From sequence record MN850592.1: DNA of 42,379 nucleotides; one strand, given 5' to 3'. Positions 6,749-41,500 of this stretch are shown here, piece by piece. The DNA comes from Escherichia phage aldrigsur. The notes beneath the pieces are model-generated. The model worked only from the letters and a program-made list of their open reading frames with translations, searched no databases and was not told the DNA's origin. The position numbers and the translations under genes are program-made. Each line of letters begins with the position of its first letter. Position 1 is the first letter of the stretch.

Positions 6749-7978
6749 TTAGTAACCTTGAGCTTTAGCCTGACGGCGCTGCTCTACCAGTGCGGCGTAA
6801 TGCTTGTTGTATTCCGGGGAACCAACAGGATGCGCCTGCTCAAGCCAGCCAAGATGCTGACGGAATGCCTCGTTGGTCATAACCTCACGAGGTGCTTGAC
6901 CGCCACCATTAGGCGTCAAAGTTTGACCAGAACGCTGAATCAAATTCCCTGCGGAACCAGCGAACTGGAGAATGGTGTTCACTGCCAGACGCACCTGATT
7001 AGGGTCGCCGGAGTTCACAGCCGCTACAACGGCATCGACCGTGCCTTTGTCGGCGGCGGTGTTGAATGCCTGTACAGCCAGACCCCATCGCTCCTCGCCA
7101 CCAGCCATCTGGTAAACCTGCTGCTCGATTGCAGCGTCACGCTGCTGACCAGCCGCAACCAGTGCGCCGAATTGACCTTTGAGGATTGATACTGTCTGTG
7201 GGTCGAACTGAGCCAGATAGCGGTCGTTCACCAGAGACGGGTCACGACGCTCGTAAGCAGAACCGAACGCTGCAAGCAGGTCGATGTTCTGGCCACGGGC
7301 AATGGTGTCCATGCCTTGGAATACGGCGCGACTGGTATCGTCCGGGAAAATCTGAGCAACCTGCTCGGAGGTCAAGCCACCTTCCTGAGTAGCCAGTTTC
7401 TCAGCCGTGAGGTTGGGATTCTGGAACTGCTGCGGAGGCTGGCCCGGCTGCTGCTGCAACTGTTGGAATGGCTGCTGCTGCTGTTGAGGCTGCTGTGCCT
7501 GCGGCTGTGCGCCCGGCTGACGACCATACGGGTCGAAAGCATAGGGCTGCGGAGCTACTGGCTGTTGGAACTGTTGTGCCGGAGCCGCTTGGCCCGGAGG
7601 CGTTGCGCCCGGATTCTGATACCCATTAACCGGAATTGGTGGTGCCGCAAACGGAGAGGTCTGCTGCGGAGCACCATACGGGTTCTGCTGAGGTACGGGT
7701 GCGTAAGGACTTGGGTTTCCCTGTTGGGGCTGTGCATACGGATTCTGCTCCTGATAAGGAATCAGGCCCGGCTGCTGTCCGAACGGCTGCGCAGGCTGCG
7801 GGGTAGCGCCACCACGAGGTAACTCGATTGGCGTACCGAGACGGCCTAACGCTGGGTTCTGTACCACCTGTGGGCTTCCACCATAATCATTACCGCTGTG
7901 ACCAGAGGGAGTATAGGTCGGGCCAGCGGGTACGTTTTGGGGAGCGGGTGCGGCAGTAGGTTGGGATTCACCAAACAT
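6749..7978 (-). CDS. Scaffolding protein with ~190-aa Pro/Gln-rich low-complexity N-terminal region, 409 aa
   Basis: Position between portal and capsid genes (synteny); N-terminal half dominated by P, Q, G, Y, A. Confidence 0.6.
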   Translation of the reverse strand: MFGESQPTAAPAPQNVPAGPTYTPSGHSGNDYGGSPQVVQNPALGRLGTPIELPRGGATPQPAQPFGQQPGLIPYQEQNPYAQPQQGNPSPYAPVPQQNPYGAPQQTSPFAAPPIPVNGYQNPGATPPGQAAPAQQFQQPVAPQPYAFDPYGRQPGAQPQAQQPQQQQQPFQQLQQQPGQPPQQFQNPNLTAEKLATQEGGLTSEQVAQIFPDDTSRAVFQGMDTIARGQNIDLLAAFGSAYERRDPSLVNDRYLAQFDPQTVSILKGQFGALVAAGQQRDAAIEQQVYQMAGGEERWGLAVQAFNTAADKGTVDAVVAAVNSGDPNQVRLAVNTILQFAGSAGNLIQRSGQTLTPNGGGQAPREVMTNEAFRQHLGWLEQAHPVGSPEYNKHYAALVEQRRQAKAQGY

Positions 7979-9817: not shown

Positions 9818-10236
9818 TACGGTTTCTCCAAATCAATGAAGCGGTACTCCTGAACGTAAGGCCGCACCATATGGGAGTAACCGCACCAACGCACACCCTC
9901 TGAACGGGCCACGTCTTTGAGTACACGGAGGATGGCACGCATCACTCCACGGTTTCTGTACGGGGGCCAGACGTATGAGGCCATAACGACCACCATCTCG
10001 CCCACATGAATATCGAATAACCTGCCGATGTGTGCAACGGCCATGAGGCTGTCGTCATCGTCAGTGATGTAAACGTCAACACAACCGGAGGCGGTGGCCT
10101 CGTACATGCTGTCAACAATCACATCGGGAGATAAGTCTGACCATGGCCGCTCGGCTTGAATGCCTTCGGCCACAGCACGGCGAATGTCGAGTGGCATTGT
10201 CGTGTGTGATGTATTTCCCATAGTAGACACTTTCAT
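9817..10236 (-). CDS. Hypothetical protein, possibly GNAT-like acetyltransferase, 139 aa
   Basis: ATG at 10236 with GGGAGAG SD; weak R-x-x-G motif (YRNRGVMRAIL); function uncertain. Confidence 0.45.
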   Translation of the reverse strand: MKVSTMGNTSHTTMPLDIRRAVAEGIQAERPWSDLSPDVIVDSMYEATASGCVDVYITDDDDSLMAVAHIGRLFDIHVGEMVVVMASYVWPPYRNRGVMRAILRVLKDVARSEGVRWCGYSHMVRPYVQEYRFIDLEKP

Positions 10237-10250
10237 ACCGACAACTCTCC

Positions 10251-10442
10251 CTACAACCCAATGACACGTTCACGGATGAAGTCGATAACATCTTGTTTAC
10301 CAGCTTCTCTGTTAATCAGTGGCAGGTTGGTATCAGGGGTTACAGTCTTACCTACTGCCGCCCAAGTTCCGAAGTGTTTTTCCAGTAGAGCTAACTGAGC
10401 TTTAGTGAACGATACTCTTTCTAATGGAGATTCTTTACCCAT
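10251..10442 (-). CDS. Hypothetical protein, 63 aa
   Basis: ATG preceded by GAGAGG SD; first gene after the RNAP-downstream regulatory region. Confidence 0.45.
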   Translation of the reverse strand: MGKESPLERVSFTKAQLALLEKHFGTWAAVGKTVTPDTNLPLINREAGKQDVIDFIRERVIGL

Positions 10443-10490: not shown

Positions 10491-10526
10491 GGTAGCGTGA
10501 TACATATCACTATAGACACTTTCATA
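10491..10526 (-). promoter_or_regulatory. Composite conserved element (19-bp box TATGAAAGTGTCTATAGTG followed by palindrome TGATAcaTATCA) in the RNAP-downstream intergenic region; candidate phage promoter/operator
   Basis: Near-identical composite found in inverted orientation at 31190..31226; 19-bp box also at 24533..24551 and 10219..10237. Confidence 0.35.
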
Positions 10527-10553
10527 TAAGTCAATGATACATATCACTATTTA

Positions 10554-18082: not shown

Positions 18083-20544
18083 AATGCGATACCCTTACTC
18101 GTCAGGAATTGTCTCTTAAACTCCAGCACTTCATCGGCTGTCGTCTCTACGTGGTGCTTCTCGTACATGCTTGGCCCTGCTTCCACCTCTGCCGGGAACG
18201 GCACTGTCAGGTTATACTCTGGCCATACGTGGTTATAGTATTCCGGGATGCTCTCCATGATTGCCTTGAGTCCAACGAAGAACTCGTGAGGGCAGTCAGG
18301 TGCAATGTCGAAATAGAATGCGTCATGCACTTGGTTGATGGGAACCACACGCCCACCAAAGAAGTCATTCGATAGCAGCCAGCGGAACAGCAAGCCACCG
18401 ATTCCCTGTACCCAAAATGCTGTCTCACCCTGAATGGGATAGTTACGCATCTGAGTTGGTTTGTATTCCATCAGGTGAGCACGCGCCGCCTTGTTCCATT
18501 TCTCGTACTGACGGAATGAATAACAAGTTCCACCCGGCGAACGGAAGTGACCACGGCGATACACCTGCCACCGCCCGTTCTCGTCCTGCTCCTTGAATAC
18601 ATTGCTCTGTCCACTTTTCTCTACGGCAGGGAAGATAACCGCGTCGAACCATTCTTCAACTTCCGGGAACAGACCCTTCTCGTTGTCGATGAACGCCTGC
18701 GCTTCTTCCTCTGAGCAACCAGTCGAGTAAGCAATACCTCGCGCTGTTGCACCGTACTGGTATGAGAACGCCTTCGGCTTAATGTCAGTACGCATCTGAC
18801 TGTACCGTGCATGGTCAGGATGGGATTCATCCTTGCACTTCTTAAGCACGTCCTCGTACGGCTCGTTGAGCTGAGCTGACAATCGCATACAGTGCATGTC
18901 GATACCATCGAGCAATGCACGAATCAGGTTCTTATCCTTACTGAACCCGGCCAGCCCCACCACTTCCAGTGCCGAGTAGTCAGCTTCAACGATGCGGCCA
19001 CCTTCACCAAAGCGGGAGGTGAACATCTGCTTAACCTTACTCGTACCTTTACGTGGCAAGTTCTGGCTGTTCGGTCGCGCCGAAGATAAGCGCGTCGTCT
19101 CGGTCGCGGTCATGTTGATGGTGTGGTGTACGATACTGTCCGGCTGGATGAACTGCATCATCCCCGACTGGCCAGTCACGTTACCTTCTTCATCGAACGT
19201 CTCGCTGAGGTAGTAGGTGCCGAGGTCTTTCTGTGCCTTGGCCCGGTCAGCAATCTCCACCACGCCGGGAATCTTACGAGCTGCCAGAATGTCCAGCACC
19301 TCACCCGCCGTACTGAATACCGGGGAACCATCGGCCAGCCTACGCTTACCTACCCAATCACCTGTGCGCCGGAGATACTCGCCCGGCTTCTTCGGGTCTT
19401 CCCATTCGAGGTTGTCTGCAATCTCCTTCGCTCGTTTATCCTGCACACGCAGAAGCCCCGGCATACGGAACAGCACCTCACCCCACTTGGTATCCACCTC
19501 GTCGGTAGCCAGCTTCTCAAACTTCGGCTCGCCCTTGTGCTTGCCGCTGGTGTAGATAGTCTGGTGTACCTTCTCAACCGGGTCGTACCACAACCCAGTC
19601 TCGTCATCCCACTCACACTCGCTGGTATGCTTGAGCCACTTGTCCTTGCCTCGCTTGAACAGTGGTGCATCCACCTTCACGTAAATGAGATTGCCCTCGG
19701 CATCCCGGCGCTCGACTCGCGCCTTGTACTTCATCACACCACCGAACACGAAGGCGCTCATGTGATAAGCTGACGTGAACTTGAATTGCTCACGCGCTTC
19801 CTTCGGCATGTCGGCTGGCAGGTAACTCAGCAGCGTTTCAGTCAGCCCACTGATTGCATCCTGTAACTCGCGACGGTTGCGCTCGGCTACCTCGCGGTCA
19901 ACATGCAGACCAGCGTGCATCATGTACGCCCACATGAGCATACCTTCGAAGCGGGTCAGTGCCATCGGCAACATGCCCTGCTTTGTCAGTTCAGCCCACT
20001 GACCAACGAACAGCTTGGTCGTGTTCTCAATATCCCCGGACGGCCCGGACAGATACTCGCTCAGCAGCTCAGGGTCAATCTGGCTGGTCAGGTAGCCTGA
20101 CTCCCACATTGCCTTGACTGCATCCACCTTGTGAGTACCACCATACTTCGGTGCTGTCTCGTTCAAGGATGGGTACTGGGATTGCTGATGCGTCAGCAGG
20201 TACTCAGCATACGCGGTACAGAATACACGGCCACCTCGTTTGAGGAAGGCAATGAACTCGTCACCGTAATGCTCGAACCACCAGCTCAATTCATACGGCG
20301 CGTTGTGAGCTACCAGAATGTTCGTGTCAGGATGCAGGTGCAGACTCTTGTTCTGCAACCAGTCCTCACGAGAACTGTACCGATACTCCTCGCGCTCGTA
20401 GAATACCCAGCCATCCTTGGTCAGCACACAGTCACGCTGGCCCTGCATAACCACATAGTTATCCGGGCAGCGCGGCGATGCCAGCTCCCCATACCACTCA
20501 TGGTTCTCAGTCTCAACGTCGATTACCTGTGCTCTTATTGCCAT
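18079..20544 (-). CDS. Family A DNA polymerase with N-terminal 3'-5' exonuclease (T7 gp5-like), 821 aa
   Basis: Motif A region VEADYSALEVVGLA, motif C NQVHDAFYFD, Exo I-like VIDVETEN. Confidence 0.9.
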   Translation of the reverse strand: MAIRAQVIDVETENHEWYGELASPRCPDNYVVMQGQRDCVLTKDGWVFYEREEYRYSSREDWLQNKSLHLHPDTNILVAHNAPYELSWWFEHYGDEFIAFLKRGGRVFCTAYAEYLLTHQQSQYPSLNETAPKYGGTHKVDAVKAMWESGYLTSQIDPELLSEYLSGPSGDIENTTKLFVGQWAELTKQGMLPMALTRFEGMLMWAYMMHAGLHVDREVAERNRRELQDAISGLTETLLSYLPADMPKEAREQFKFTSAYHMSAFVFGGVMKYKARVERRDAEGNLIYVKVDAPLFKRGKDKWLKHTSECEWDDETGLWYDPVEKVHQTIYTSGKHKGEPKFEKLATDEVDTKWGEVLFRMPGLLRVQDKRAKEIADNLEWEDPKKPGEYLRRTGDWVGKRRLADGSPVFSTAGEVLDILAARKIPGVVEIADRAKAQKDLGTYYLSETFDEEGNVTGQSGMMQFIQPDSIVHHTINMTATETTRLSSARPNSQNLPRKGTSKVKQMFTSRFGEGGRIVEADYSALEVVGLAGFSKDKNLIRALLDGIDMHCMRLSAQLNEPYEDVLKKCKDESHPDHARYSQMRTDIKPKAFSYQYGATARGIAYSTGCSEEEAQAFIDNEKGLFPEVEEWFDAVIFPAVEKSGQSNVFKEQDENGRWQVYRRGHFRSPGGTCYSFRQYEKWNKAARAHLMEYKPTQMRNYPIQGETAFWVQGIGGLLFRWLLSNDFFGGRVVPINQVHDAFYFDIAPDCPHEFFVGLKAIMESIPEYYNHVWPEYNLTVPFPAEVEAGPSMYEKHHVETTADEVLEFKRQFLTSKGIAL

Positions 20545-24532: not shown

Positions 24533-24551
24533 CAATATAGACACCTTCATA
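24533..24551 (-). promoter_or_regulatory. Copy of 19-bp conserved box (TATGAAGGTGTCTATATTG), 20 nt upstream of the 24513 start; candidate promoter
   Basis: 17/19 match to boxes at 10508..10526 and 31190..31208; preceded by hairpin 24552..24576. Confidence 0.3.
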
Positions 24552-31063: not shown

Positions 31064-31189
31064 GTATTATTTTCAAGAAATGTGATAAGTGTATGTAATC
31101 ATTAGGATTAAAGTTTGATTAGATAATCATAACACTGGATAGAATACCGTTATCAGATAGGTTATAAGTTACTGTAATCATTAGATAAT

Positions 31190-31226
31190 TATGAAAGTGT
31201 CTATAGTGATATAGTATCGCTAGATA
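31190..31226 (+). promoter_or_regulatory. Inverted copy of the composite element (TATGAAAGTGTCTATAGTG + TGATAtagTATC palindrome) at the boundary of the AT-rich and T-depleted regions
   Basis: Same composite as minus-strand 10491..10526, here on plus strand. Confidence 0.35.
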
Positions 31227-31230
31227 CGCA

Positions 31231-31620
31231 GAGCGAGCGCGGCGCAGCCGAAACAAGCGAGCGCCGAACGGATGACGGATGGCAGACCGTAGGACTGACA
31301 GACGGCAGACAGTGAAGGCAGTAGGACAGTAACAGCAGGTAGCAGAGCATGACGCGCAGAGCTGGCAGGCGCAGACAGTAGACCAGCACACCACACAGCA
31401 CCACGCCGCACACCGCTACACACCAGCACCACGAAAAGAGACAGATACCCGCACGACCACGCGCAGCACACAGCACCACACAGCCAGCGCAGAGCGTCCC
31501 CAATAGGACAGCACCACACCGCCACCGATAGCCCACACAGCAGGCACACAGCCAGCCAGCAGGACAGCACCACGCGGCGAGTGATGAAACGCGACACGCA
31601 CGAGCTATACCGCACGCAGG
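31231..31620. repeat. Strand-asymmetric block (plus strand ~5% T) with degenerate short repeats (ACAGCACCAC x4, GACAG-type); candidate terminal-repeat/packaging region
   Basis: Composition counted directly; lies between last late gene (stop 31810) and early promoters, where genome ends of T7-like phages map. Confidence 0.4.
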
Positions 31621-31809
31621 CAATCCTCTTGACGCGCCGCGCAACGCACGCGAGACAATATCGCGCACGTCGCGAGGCTAATCCGCGCACACGTCATGGG
31701 GGTACGCGCGGTCATTTGGGTCGAGGGAGGGGCAACCATAAACATGCAATTTTCAAGCCGGGGGTATTGCTCCACACGGCCTGTTCAATGCTCCAGCTTT
31801 CGATAGCCC

Positions 31810-32346
31810 CTACAGCGTCGCACAGTAGTCGCTACAGCGTTTTGCACGAGCTACCAAGGCATCCCTATACCGAACGATTGTCGGGGCTGTAGAAGCCTTT
31901 AGGAACGCAATACGAAGGTCACAGATGGCTGCTGCTGCGGAGTGAGGTTCCAGACGTTTGGCTGCTGCCACGGTAGCAGGGCCAATAACCCCGTCCTGTG
32001 CAACACCGCATACCCGCTGTAGAGCTTTCGCCGCACGGGAGACACCTGAGTTAACGCCGTAGTCGAACACGGCACATGCAATCGCAGGGTGAAGCTCGTC
32101 ACCTCGGATGGGGCTGTAGTAGTCCCGTCGATAGATAGCTTCGGCTTGTGCTTTGGTGAGGTCGCGGATAGGCACACAAATAGTGCCGCCAAGCCCAGTA
32201 GGGACACCGCAAGCTCTACCATCCAGCTTTCCATCACGAGCGTCACTAATTCCATGATTCGTTTCCCCTCCGGTGTCGCCGGGCAGGTTGGCGTAACCGC
32301 CTTCTGCCAGCCCGGTGAACCGCATACAGATTTCAAAGTTAGTCAT
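31810..32346 (-). CDS. Endolysin, GH108-type lysozyme with C-terminal peptidoglycan-binding domain, 178 aa
   Basis: N-terminal AEGGYANLPGDTGGETNHGI (GH108 EGGY..GGETN.GI signature) and C-terminal DGVIGPATVAAAKR (PG_binding_3-like); no signal or SAR segment. Confidence 0.75.
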   Translation of the reverse strand: MTNFEICMRFTGLAEGGYANLPGDTGGETNHGISDARDGKLDGRACGVPTGLGGTICVPIRDLTKAQAEAIYRRDYYSPIRGDELHPAIACAVFDYGVNSGVSRAAKALQRVCGVAQDGVIGPATVAAAKRLEPHSAAAAICDLRIAFLKASTAPTIVRYRDALVARAKRCSDYCATL

Positions 32347-33402: not shown

Positions 33403-34071
33403 TTAAGAGAGGGTGATGCCAGTGATAACGCCACCAGCGACAGTGAAGGTTACAGTGTCGGTGTAAGTGCCAGTCACCGGAACCTGTAGTGCAGCGGCGT
33501 TAGCCACAGCAGCGATAGTTGCAGGGAAGGTGCCGTACGAGATTACCCCGTTGGACACAGTAAACGTGGCGTTGGCGATAGCCGTACCCGCAGAGTTGCG
33601 GATTTGGATACCGTTACCGCTGGAGATACAGGCCACCGTCGCCGGGAGCCGGGCTGCCAGCAGCACGCCGTTGGTGTTCACGAAGGAAGTGGACGTAATG
33701 CCAGCGGCACCGTTCACGTTCTGCACAGAGATTGAATCACCGTTGGACTTCATACCGACAGTCACCGGGAATCGAATCTGATAAGTAGAGCCATCAACCT
33801 CAACCGTACCCGACTTGGACACAGTGCCGTCTTGGTTCACTACAGTCGCTGTAGCGCCGTCTGCGACGATTACTGAGCCTTCCGGTACGGAACTATACCC
33901 AGCCGCTTCCAACGCTGTCATGAGCTGCTGGATGGCCGTGTCGATGTCAGCAGCCTGAGCTGCCGTGATAGTGGTCGTGTTGTTCACGAAACGCTGCGTA
34001 AGGTTCGCAGCAATGTTGGCGCGGTAGCCGATGTCATACCGCTGTTGGTCAGTGATGGAAATCAAGGACAT
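33403..34071 (-). CDS. Hypothetical Gly/Thr/Ala/Val-rich protein (beta-rich, fibre/adhesin-like), 222 aa
   Basis: Start overlaps terminase stop (TAATG); composition suggests beta-sandwich/fibre-like fold. Confidence 0.5.
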   Translation of the reverse strand: MSLISITDQQRYDIGYRANIAANLTQRFVNNTTTITAAQAADIDTAIQQLMTALEAAGYSSVPEGSVIVADGATATVVNQDGTVSKSGTVEVDGSTYQIRFPVTVGMKSNGDSISVQNVNGAAGITSTSFVNTNGVLLAARLPATVACISSGNGIQIRNSAGTAIANATFTVSNGVISYGTFPATIAAVANAAALQVPVTGTYTDTVTFTVAGGVITGITLS

Positions 34072-38518: not shown

Positions 38519-41500
38519 TATTCGCCCTTAACTGCTTCGTTGAGTGCTCGGACACCCGGCACAATGGAGATTAGTGGGAGAGCCTGAATGATGTTCCCGG
38601 CAGCCTTGCGAGCGTCATGCCCGGCTTGGTCGATGTCACCAGTAGCCAGACTCCCTGCTGTAGCAGAGGTGGCCCCAGCGATACCGTACAGGCGGTCGAG
38701 GAACAGCAGGCCCGGCGCACCGAAGCTGCGCTGCTGCCCGGTCAGTACACCAGTGAACTCAGAGGCGAAGCCAATAGCACCAAGATAGTTCAGTGCCTGA
38801 CCTGCCAGTTTGTTCGGTGCCATAGTGTCCGGGTCAGAGAATGCCTTGCCGGAGATGACGTTGTTGGCAGCAGTGGCCATCATCGCCAGCGGGTACTGGT
38901 ACGCCATCAGCGTAGCCAGACCACGCGCACCCTCGCGATTCCAAGTACCAACCAGCGTCTTGTTGTGCGTAGCCGCGACGAAGCGACGGAACGTAAACAG
39001 GAACTTACCGAGGGTACTGAACTCTGCGAAAGCAGGCAGCTCACCTACACGAGCGCGAACAATAGCGTCATCCATGGCGTTCATCATGACGATGCGAGAG
39101 CGATTGAACACCCCTTCATCCCAAGCGTCAGGCTTGGTGCCATGAGTACCAACCTGCTTGCGAATGTCAGCCAGCAGCGCATCGTTGGCCCCGTAGGTTT
39201 TCATGGCTGCAATAGCCTTGGCATCACCTTCGGCTGCCTTGCGCAGCGTCTGCATCACGAGCGCAGCGTTGGTTCGAGTCTGGTGGAAGTGGATGTATTT
39301 CTGCATGTTGATGAACATCGTGGCATCGCGCAGGTGTTCCATACGCATGACCCACGGCGACTTATCCGCAGAGAACATGTCGTCATAGTGCTGCATGATT
39401 GGGCGCATACGAATATCACTCGCAACCGCCGCAGTCAGAGCTTCCTCGGCATCAAGTGCCAACTGACGACCTTCCTTAGTAGACACCCTCATTTGCTTAA
39501 ATAGTGCGCGTGCTTCGGGAATTGTACGCATCATGGCGCGAAACGTATTGACTGCCCCGAAACGTTGCATCATCGTGCCGTATTCCACCAACTGCCACAG
39601 ACCAGATGCAGCCAGACCAGTGGCCTGAGTCAGCGCCGACAACTGACGCATGAACTCCGGCATCTCCTCACCAACAGGAGCACCTTGGTAGTAGGCCATG
39701 ATGTTGTCGTACTGGTCGAGAGCCTTGCGGCGTGCAGTGCTGTCCGGGATAGATTTGGCCAGAGCCTCGCGAGCAGCAGCTCGTTCAGCGTCAGTACCCA
39801 ATCCAGCCTCGTGCAGAGCCAGTCGCCCAGTAATGCGTCGGTTATAGCTGTCCATCATACTGGTGATGCTGTCATCGAACAGGTCACGCACCTGCAAGTT
39901 AGGGCCAAGCGTGTGCATCATGTCGATGTTGATACGGCTCTTAAGCATTGACGGTCTACCAGCGTCCGAGCCAGACTCACGAAGGAGCGCTGACGCACGG
40001 GCCTTGGCAGCCTCGTCCATACCTTTCGTGTTCGCGATGATTTCGAGTAATTCATCACGACCCTCCTTGTTGATAATCATCCCGGAGTTGTCGATACCAT
40101 AACCCTTACGACGAGCACGCTCAACCATAGCGTGGGCAATGACGTTGGCAGTCGGACGGTCAGTACCGATACCGCGCTGCACAGCAGTCGTCATCTGCTT
40201 CATGAATGGTTTCTTGCCGAGCAACTGCTCAGCCTGCTCAATCTTGGTCACGTTCATCCGGCGCGGGTAGTAGTACGGGTTCTTCTCAACGAAGCCCGGT
40301 TCAACCATACCCTTGTTCTCCAGCTCACGGCCAACGGCACGGGAGTATTCCCCCAGTCGGTCGGCAGCGTTGGCCACATTTGGGTTAGCGCCTTTGAAAC
40401 TGGGGTCAATCATACGCTTATCCAGCTCCAGACGCACAGCAGCTTCAAACTCCTGCTGCGCCCGGCGATAGCCTACCGGGTCGCGGAAGCGCCGGATGTT
40501 GCTCCAGCCATCAGCGTTCAGGGCGTTGCGCAGTGTATCCTCATACTGGTTCAGCAACACACCAAAGCGAGCCTGAGTCTCGCGCTGGATAGACGCAGCG
40601 GAGGTCATGTTCGGATTCAGTGGGTCGTCCAGCAGTCGCCCGGCCAGAGCACTTGATTCATCAGAGTGCTGGCTGAAAGACTTGAACAGTGACCACTCAA
40701 GGAACGGACGCTTAGGGTTGGTCTGCTCACCACGGCGTGCGAGGTCGAGTCCACGCTGAGCCGTAGCCCGGATGGATTCAGGAACCTCGTCAACGACAGC
40801 GGCACCGCGTGGGCCAACACCGAGCGACATCGCCAGCGGCGACATAGCATTGTTCGGGTCGAACTGCGGCGGGTTGTTGGGGTCGATACCGTTACGGCGC
40901 TGCATCTCAGCAGCGAACTCCTCCGGCGACAGTTCATCAAGGCGACGAGCTGGCGCGGCGGCGGGACGATAGAATGCGGTGGTGGCCGCCCCGTGCAGGG
41001 CAGCCGCGAAGATAATCTCGTTCTGAGACACTGGGCGTGCTTCGTTACCCACCGCTGTCATAGTGGCAGCAGTTGAAGCTGCACCGACAGCGGCGGTTCC
41101 GAGGCGACCTAATTTCAGGGCAGTGCCTGCTCCCATCGAGAGCAGGTCGGTGGCGAGATACAGCGGGTCAGCGAATTGCAGAACCGCGTTCATCACCGGG
41201 GCAGTGTGAGCCAACTGGGTACGCTCACGCATCTCTTGGAGCTGCTGGGTACGCCAGTTGAACTCGTCCATGGATTTGGATTTGAACAGGAACGTCCGGT
41301 CATCTGCACCCACCGGGAACTGTACGTTCTGCAATGCCTCGTTGGGCTTGAAGTCCGGGTCAGCTTGGAAGGTGGGCTTGTTGAACGCGGCATCAAAGAG
41401 CTGGGTGGTGTCCCAGTTCTTCACAGAAGCACTCAACGCCGTGGCCATCGGAGTTGCTTCCAGTTCCTGCATCTTGTCGAACTGCTCGACGGCACCCTGA

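Follow-up and report, generated by a model that had tools for sequence, protein, structure and literature searches.

Close to one predicted end of the genome of Escherichia phage aldrigsur (MN850592.1), a short sequence element at position 31190 lies on the strand opposite to the phage genes and forms an inverted pair with a copy directly after the RNA polymerase (RNAP) gene. What would a phage do with such an element, facing away from everything it encodes? The window analyzed here is the whole record of 42,379 nucleotides (nt), and coordinates count from its first letter. Both arms of the pair are, with high probability, copies of the promoter of the phage's own T7-type single-subunit RNAP, of which the copy at the left end faces outward and the others are in the sense orientation.

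By megablast, the window is a complete genome of a Bonnellvirus (Autographiviridae) in a circularly permuted assembly, with Escherichia phage altidsur (95–97% identity) as its nearest relative. The minus strand carries all of the long open reading frames (ORFs) with phage functions. The gene order begins with four host-type early promoters, followed by the early genes, the replication genes, the RNAP gene and the structural genes, which span the junction of the record, and the endolysin gene (32346-31810) comes last. The RNAP itself has 810 amino acids (ORF 12986-10554(-)) and is a homologue of T7 RNAP (gene 1), with 25% identity across 97% of its length; the counterparts of this ORF in relatives are annotated as RNA polymerase.

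The sequence TATGAAAGTGTCTATAGTGATAT is found exactly at 31190-31212(+) and 10526-10504(-). These arms of 23 nt are 100% complementary, have 20,663 nt between them and make up the longest perfect inverted repeat in the window. An earlier note on this DNA had described the pair as a 37-bp composite element with a near-exact partner. The pair is real, but the strings quoted there are 33 and 34 nt long, and the similarity past the 23 exact bases is gapped (AGTATC--GCTA against -GTATCACGCTA), giving about 32 matches in 35 columns before it stops at 31222 and 10493. An exhaustive search of both strands for a 19-mer box of the element with up to three mismatches, as the note had proposed, gave exactly four matches: 31190(+), 10526(-), 24551(-) with two mismatches and 10237(-) with three. 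Only 0.01 copies are expected by chance, and none of 100 shuffled sequences reached four. Both of the further minus-strand copies listed in the note were borne out by this search, and relaxing it to five mismatches added no copy anywhere in the window. The note's count of four holds at three mismatches, but it had overlooked a fifth, degenerate copy, ATGAGGGTGTCTACTAAG at 39492-39475(-), which was found by checking the site homologous to an intragenic copy in phage LIMEzero (NC_015585).

Apart from the left-end copy, the motif recurs in the orientation of the genes and at positions where promoters would be expected from related phages. The RNAP stop codon is separated by 28 nt from the late copy (10493-10526(-)), behind which come a GC leader hairpin (10485-10469), a ribosome-binding site and then the first late ORF, with its ATG at 10442. 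The copy at 24533-24551(-) comes directly after a terminator-like hairpin (24577-24552) and before the replication module, and further copies are found at 10237 and 39492. In LIMEzero, ATTTAAAGGCAATCACTAAG and TATAAAGGCAAGCACTATGA are annotated as "putative phage specific promoters", and they occupy the positions of the 10526 and 24551 copies in the window: the LIMEzero promoter at 20330-20349 follows the RNAP gene, and that at 7294-7313 follows a terminator (7255-7284) and lies ahead of the primase gene. The two sets share their architecture, consisting of ATGAARG, a variable block and CTA. The 10526 copy also matches P007/P008 of phage LUZ19 in position. Thus, the alignment with promoters of related phages suggested in the earlier note showed sites that coincide with annotated promoters as well as conservation of the motif in relatives.

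The motif also varies between genomes in a concerted manner. The 4-nt block after ATGAAAG is TGTC in aldrigsur and altidsur, TGAC in forsur and ROV85, CTAC in usur and Kc261, and TAAC in J8-65, smaasur and Lidtsur, while LIMEzero carries GCAAGCAC. For the TGTC, TGAC and CTAC groups, every copy compared within a genome has the same block, including the antisense copy and the copy at the start of a GNAT gene. TAAC is the block of both the left-end and the post-RNAP copy in J8-65 and Lidtsur, whose weaker copies have TATC or TGAC, one or two bases off. The RNAP segment that aligns with the T7 RNAP specificity loop (residues 739-770) reads KETMLNNINLMGIHS in aldrigsur, KEIALNNINLMGIHG in forsur, KESPM-HLHLMGVHQ in usur, KETTM-GIKLMGVHA in J8-65, RETSM-RLNLLGVHA in LIMEzero and IQT---RLNLMFLGQ in T7. 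This segment (NNINLMGIHS, NNINLMGIHG, HLHLMGVHQ, GIKLMGVHA and RLNLLGVHA) changes in step with the promoter variants. Among six close RNAPs, the 30-column bin over T7 residues 743-770 holds 9 of the 117 variable columns and is among the three densest bins, and the bin over the AT-rich recognition loop of T7 RNAP is likewise among the densest in substitutions. In these alignments, the promoter block co-varies with the specificity loop of the RNAP, as a correlation across five variants and not as a functional swap.

A further piece of evidence comes from LUZ19, in which ONT-cappable-seq identified four phage-specific promoters, one of which, P001, is antisense at the left (early) end of the genome (Putzeys et al. 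2024, PMC10914365). Positional homology with the LIMEzero promoters, concerted variation within genomes, co-variation with the specificity loop and this mapped counterpart together lead us to read the motif as the promoter of the phage RNAP, which was the main reading in the earlier note. The same observations bear on the possibility that a DNA-binding regulator of the phage or the host uses the motif as its operator, with the inverted copy regulating the early promoters next to it. About 125 bp separate the left-end copy from the first host-type promoter, upstream of which it lies, but an operator would not explain why the motif changes in step with the specificity loop, why one copy has the canonical promoter position past the RNAP gene, with the leader hairpin and ribosome-binding site behind it, or why the LUZ19 counterpart is a mapped transcription start. 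Two of the copies are located within coding sequence, and it is not obvious what an operator would do there. We therefore regard an operator as very unlikely.

The left-end promoter copy extends from 31190 to 31222(+), with the exact 23-nt core at 31190-31212 followed by the similar, initially transcribed stretch, and is antisense to all genes. It diverges from the first host-type promoter, has the predicted terminal repeat on one side and the four host-type early promoters on the other, and points at the predicted left terminus from about 520 nt inside it. We compared this copy with ten other Bonnellvirus genomes (altidsur, BHUENT7, Ec1-ASingh, usur, Kc261, ROV85, forsur, smaasur, J8-65 and Lidtsur) and LIMEzero. 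Exactly one antisense copy was present at the same place in all ten and in LIMEzero, in each case in the genome's own variant. The LIMEzero antisense copy, at 656(-), has no annotation and neither do its two intragenic copies; only the two sense copies are annotated. In the J8-65 subgroup, the DNA around the antisense copy is too diverged for megablast alignment.

This conservation also speaks to the idea that the late promoter was once duplicated, leaving the left-end copy as a relic without function. The two copies share part of the composite sequence downstream, as they might after a recent duplication. However, the antisense copy is kept at the same place in the Bonnellvirus genomes examined, LIMEzero, LUZ19, Ralstonia phage phiAp1 and Acinetobacter phage Petty, and it tracks the promoter variant of each genome despite diverged surroundings. 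Since a relic would degenerate instead of following each shift in specificity, we consider this explanation highly improbable.

The inverted arrangement by itself might suggest a recombination substrate, either an invertible 20.7-kb segment or an intramolecular site, or a pac site, and the earlier note had listed recombination among its options. The pair is the longest perfect inverted repeat of the genome, and one of its arms is near the genome end. However, according to the annotations of the full J8-65, altidsur, Lidtsur and LIMEzero records, the gene order is the same in these relatives and essentially all of their genes share one strand, and no integrase or invertase is annotated in any of the four. 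In addition, the motif is present in three more copies in direct orientation, and the arm near the end is about 520 nt from the predicted terminus rather than at it. The recombination proposal was consequently abandoned, and we give it and a pac site next to no credence. Any replication or packaging role of the outward promoter would act via transcription and not via pairing of the arms.

The position of the terminus was predicted from J8-65, the one retrieved Bonnellvirus record with annotated terminal repeats. These repeats are 259 bp long, start 72 nt past the endolysin gene and open with TCGACCCGAAGG; at the right end, they are preceded by ...GGGCCTCCC. The window has the same junction as J8-65, CCTCCC directly followed by TCGACCC at 31730-31718, which places the predicted left terminus at 31724 (TCGACCC...) and predicts a repeat of about 260 bp. 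The direct terminal repeat, present as a single copy in the circular assembly, would accordingly correspond to 31459-31724(-) by homology to J8-65, with an approximate inner boundary. At this inner boundary is a conserved island, TATCTGTCTCTTTT at 31434-31447 on the minus (sense) strand, whose consensus TATCT(G/A)TCT(C/T)TTTT is kept in both Bonnellvirus subgroups while its flanks diverge and the region is A-poor. The island is at 271-284 in J8-65, 12 nt past the end of the repeat (259), and was not present at the left ends of LIMEzero, LUZ19 or KP34. It resembles the class II pause/termination signal at the T7 concatemer junction (ATCTGTT followed by a T-run). Just outside the predicted start of the repeat, between the endolysin stop codon and the predicted terminus, there is a stretch of about 50 nt (CCCCGGCTTGAAAATTG...GGGCCTCCC, 31725-31775) that is conserved in both Bonnellvirus subgroups and recognizable in LIMEzero. 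It may represent terminase recognition or cleavage context.

The DNA between the left-end promoter and the predicted terminus is a T-depleted, non-coding block (31227-31724(+)) with 7.4% T, compared to 22.9% genome-wide. The eight 300-nt windows with the lowest T content in the genome, on either strand, all fall within it. The first ≈140 nt of the block (to about 31370) are AG-rich and the next ≈230 nt are CA-rich. That the copy near the genome end is antisense and reads into such a block had been remarked in the earlier note, and this was confirmed by its position on the plus strand, against minus-strand genes and with the block downstream. T-content profiles were also obtained beyond the window for eight other Bonnellvirus genomes, LIMEzero and LUZ19 (n = 10). 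In all ten, LUZ19 included, T falls to 0–6 per 50 nt from about 20–50 nt past the antisense promoter, and the low T content lasts to the terminus or predicted terminus (548 to 1 in J8-65, 751 to 1 in LUZ19). Because the depletion sets in just past the promoter and ends at the terminus in the profiled genomes, its boundaries appear to be those of an outward transcription unit. KP34, with a sense-oriented left-end promoter, showed no marked A/T strand depletion beside that promoter. We found no mention of a composition bias in the LUZ19 paper (PMC10914365).

The block does not look like a gene or a structured RNA. There was no Rfam match at E ≤ 1 between 30500 and 32500, and the predicted 519-nt RNA folds no better than shuffled sequence (z = +0.85); on these two results, a structured or known non-coding RNA was rejected. 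Possible start codons are few in the predicted RNA, and none of its reading frames is conserved. Two ORFs, 31201-31690(-) and 31581-31892(+), are regarded as spurious, as the indels in relatives are not multiples of three. Long ORFs arise in the block because stop codons are impossible without A or T. GenBank records of relatives annotate ORFs in the block as hypothetical proteins (forsur_28, Kc261 QQM15444 and ROV85 gp21-24). The idea that the RNA acts as a CsrA sponge was dropped, with about 6 GGA motifs counted by eye where about 9–10 would be expected by chance. A terminator scan showed no plus-strand terminator past the outward promoter, only one weak minus-strand hairpin, and no strong intrinsic terminator behind the endolysin gene.

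Several points weigh against an outward promoter with a T-depleted unit attached to it. The core of the motif, CTATAG, is palindromic and reads TCACTATAG on the opposite strand, so that the orientation must rest on other bases. Furthermore, TCACTATAG on that strand corresponds to positions -8 to +1 of the T7 promoter consensus. T depletion is strong only in GC-rich lineages, and phiAp1 is only mildly A-poor, and the AT-rich Petty is instead G-poor on the sense strand. When RNA:DNA and DNA:DNA stabilities were estimated with nearest-neighbor parameters and compared, the block was not among the most favorable windows. Finally, the strong promoter copy at nt 475-490 of KP34, which is active in vitro (Lu et al. 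2019, PMC6834552), is located at the left end of the genome but on the sense strand, unlike that in aldrigsur, demonstrating that the outward orientation is not universal.

The self-complementary core, the T7-like TCACTATAG and the KP34 arrangement would all be compatible with a promoter that fires rightward, in the gene-sense direction like T7 phiOL, from the opposite strand (ATATCACTATAGACAC). However, the shared TATGAARGTGTCTA and the co-varying block would then sit at +3 to +17, where a T7-type polymerase reads no specificity, and each of the three other copies would be directed against its own genes. Neither the 24551 copy nor the 10237 copy nor J8-65 has the match to TCACTATAG, and the orientation of the LUZ19 promoter is antisense by experiment (PMC10914365). 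The bases common to all copies, TATGAARGTGTCTA, are on the ATGAAAG side of the motif. Since both these invariant bases and the co-varying ones are upstream only when the motif is read outward, and since the other copies are then sense-oriented, we conclude that rightward firing is very unlikely and retain the outward orientation. The predicted start is either the G of TATAG (G31206) or a G two positions further on (G31208); for the late copy, the corresponding positions are 10510 and 10508.

We propose the following sequence of events. The 10526 copy, right behind the RNAP gene, would be the main late promoter, with the 24551, 10237 and probably the 39492 copies as further sense promoters. Once RNAP has been made, initiation on the plus strand at about 31206-31208 would produce a non-coding, U-poor RNA. 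On unit-length DNA, this outward RNA would run off the left terminus after about 520 nt. On concatemers, it would cross the single repeat at the junction and proceed in antisense into the lysis genes, as has been seen in LUZ19, where P001 transcripts extend over gp47-49 at the opposite genome end (PMC10914365).

The purpose of this transcription can be narrowed to a few candidates by analogy. In the role that we prefer, the outward promoter would keep RNAP moving through the terminal repeat and the concatemer junction, as a mirror-image counterpart of T7 phiOL/phiOR, and would thereby serve concatemer maturation or packaging; we favor this tentatively, at somewhat less than even confidence. 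Ranked slightly below it is insulation or antisense action, in which outward transcription would oppose late read-through into the early genes, as hypothesized by the authors of the LUZ19 study (PMC10914365); this is possible, if rather doubtful. Priming of replication or opening of the end, by analogy with T7 phiOL, seems unlikely, and the R-loop version of this idea gains no support from the hybrid-stability estimate above. The remaining weight is on other roles of outward transcription. None of the three candidates accounts convincingly for the base bias.

The outward arrangement is seen in at least five genera (Phikmvvirus, Bonnellvirus, Waewaevirus, Ayakvirus and Pettyvirus). It is conceivable, though we would not count on it, that the outward promoter and the U-poor unit running to the terminus form one conserved cis-acting device in phages with the phiKMV-like position of the RNAP gene. 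If so, outward passage of RNAP through the terminal repeat would be mechanistically required; it could serve to duplicate or cleave the repeat where the units of a concatemer join, to bring in the terminase, or to keep the end of the DNA open or protected. The extreme base bias would then be no by-product but the result of selection on outward transcription.

The left-end promoter is separated from the first early promoter by an AT-rich spacer (31064-31189, 75% A+T), which is partly conserved across Bonnellvirus. The four early promoters are arranged in tandem on the minus strand at 31063-31035, 30957-30929, 30820-30792 and 30740-30712, and have the form TTG(A/C)(C/A)A-N17-TGTAAT. Their -35 elements are near consensus, and their -10 elements, TG-N-TGTAAT, are unusual in having G at position 2. 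The same TGTAAT is found in two of the three LIMEzero promoters annotated as putative Pantoea-specific. A generic sigma-70 scan listed none of the four, because it requires A at position 2 of the -10 hexamer.

Two promoter copies are embedded in coding sequence. As the earlier note had claimed, the copy at 10219-10237(-) overlaps a start codon: it contains ATG 10236 of a 139-aa GNAT/Rac-like gene (10236-9817), preceded by the ribosome-binding site GGAGAG. The same overlap is found in altidsur, usur, Kc261, forsur, ROV85, J8-65 and LIMEzero, each with its own motif variant, and in degenerate form in Lidtsur; homologous sites are at 19869 in J8-65 (L003), 20740 in LIMEzero (L005) and 31499 in L004. 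As read from these sequences, the stretch is promoter and coding sequence at once. Residues 3–5 of the GNAT/Rac-like protein vary with the promoter variant, from MKVST in aldrigsur to MKATT in usur, MKVTI in forsur, MKVSV in J8-65 and MKAST in LIMEzero. It seems from this comparison that the N-terminal codons are dictated by the promoter. An RNA initiated at the 10237 copy would itself be without the GNAT/Rac-like start codon.

The probable fifth, weak promoter copy, ATGAGGGTGTCTACTAAG at 39475-39492(-), is within an internal virion protein gene. Its counterparts occur at homologous codons in LIMEzero (33866), Lidtsur (33128) and J8-65, each with its own motif variant, and the site encodes M(R/K)(V/A)S(T/A)(K/V)(E/D). 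It is paralleled by P009 in LUZ19 and by the KP34 promoter at 33721, both in the structural region.

Near the late promoter, ATAGTGATATGTATCA is present twice, 37 nt apart, at 10534-10549(-) and 10497-10512(-). The first of these directly follows the RNAP stop codon and is without the upstream half of the promoter. A tandem duplication of the promoter may have left it behind; in LUZ19, the RNAP gene is followed by two promoters. A scan of IMG/VR with ATGAARGTGTCTATA returned at least 120 loci with single matches on unrelated contigs, all of which we attribute to chance, fitting the reported absence of bonnellviruses from that database.

T7-type RNAP promoters are known, as is the antisense left-end promoter of the phiKMV type (LUZ19 P001). 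No description of Bonnellvirus promoters was found in the Bonnellvirus literature searched or in the annotated GenBank records retrieved. New here are a set of promoters for Bonnellvirus, with five sites in aldrigsur, and for LIMEzero, together with their specificity variants, and the presence of the outward promoter in further genera, linked to a nearly T-free unit that ends at the terminus. The antisense left-end promoter is thus not peculiar to Pseudomonas phages, and recurs in distant genera. The four natural specificity variants in Bonnellvirus and their matching RNAP loops could serve as orthogonal polymerase–promoter pairs. The purpose of outward transcription through the terminal repeat has also become testable in a phage of E. 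coli K-12, a tractable host.

How does the left-end promoter compare with those of better-known phages? T7 has two end-proximal promoters, phiOL and phiOR, which Dunn and Studier reportedly described in 1983 and which are said to read in the gene-sense direction. The T7 promoters flank the concatemer junction, and phiOL is a secondary replication origin. Like phiOL/phiOR, the 31190 copy is beside the terminal repeat, before the host early promoters, and is not needed for gene expression, and in both phages these promoters lie inward of short repeats that flank the terminal repeat. A motif like the T7 class II pause signal is found on the sense strand at the inner boundary of the repeat in aldrigsur, as in T7. 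A pause of RNAP at the concatemer junction starts maturation in T7 (PMC3276506). However, the orientation of the aldrigsur copy is the opposite of that of phiOL/phiOR, being antisense, and there is no phiOR-like sense copy before the right-end repeat at up to five mismatches.

A left-end promoter is found in several other phages with repeated RNAP promoters. In KP34, the promoter is repeated at the left end, behind the RNAP gene and within the structural region, as it is in aldrigsur. In phiAp1, AGAGTGCCACCTGTAGGGTATAACCCC on the minus strand at about 612-585 is matched by AGAGAGCCACCTGTAGGTATAACCC right after the RNAP gene; this inverted copy, which has no annotation, is located between the repeat (1-416) and the host promoters (from 646). 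Petty has a motif of about 44 nt at about 575-525, inverted relative to the intergenic region past its RNAP gene and again without annotation.

The closest parallel is LUZ19, in which P001, at 751(-), is flanked by the repeat (1-472) and by the sigma-70 promoters, which start at 913. Like the 31190 copy, it is a promoter of the phage's own RNAP that is antisense to all genes and situated in the interval from the terminal repeat to the host early promoters. In both phages, the left-end promoter is about 520–730 nt from the left terminus with a T-depleted block downstream, and there are about four promoters in all, with the others just past the RNAP gene and in the structural region. The two differ in host and genus, their RNAPs are about 31% identical, and the promoter sequences are unrelated (GgtTATGTCACacACAnnGG versus TATGAAAGTGTCTATAGTG). 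Moreover, the P001 transcripts have been mapped, whereas the aldrigsur promoter is predicted from sequence. The P001 arrangement was also reported for 15 other Phikmvvirus species by motif search (PMC10914365). Judged by its motif, its strand, its place relative to the predicted repeat and its conservation, the left-end copy in aldrigsur is a predicted antisense left-end promoter of the phiKMV type. Taken together, these comparisons suggest that a left-end promoter is general in this group of phages, and that its outward orientation seems to be widespread, but not universal.

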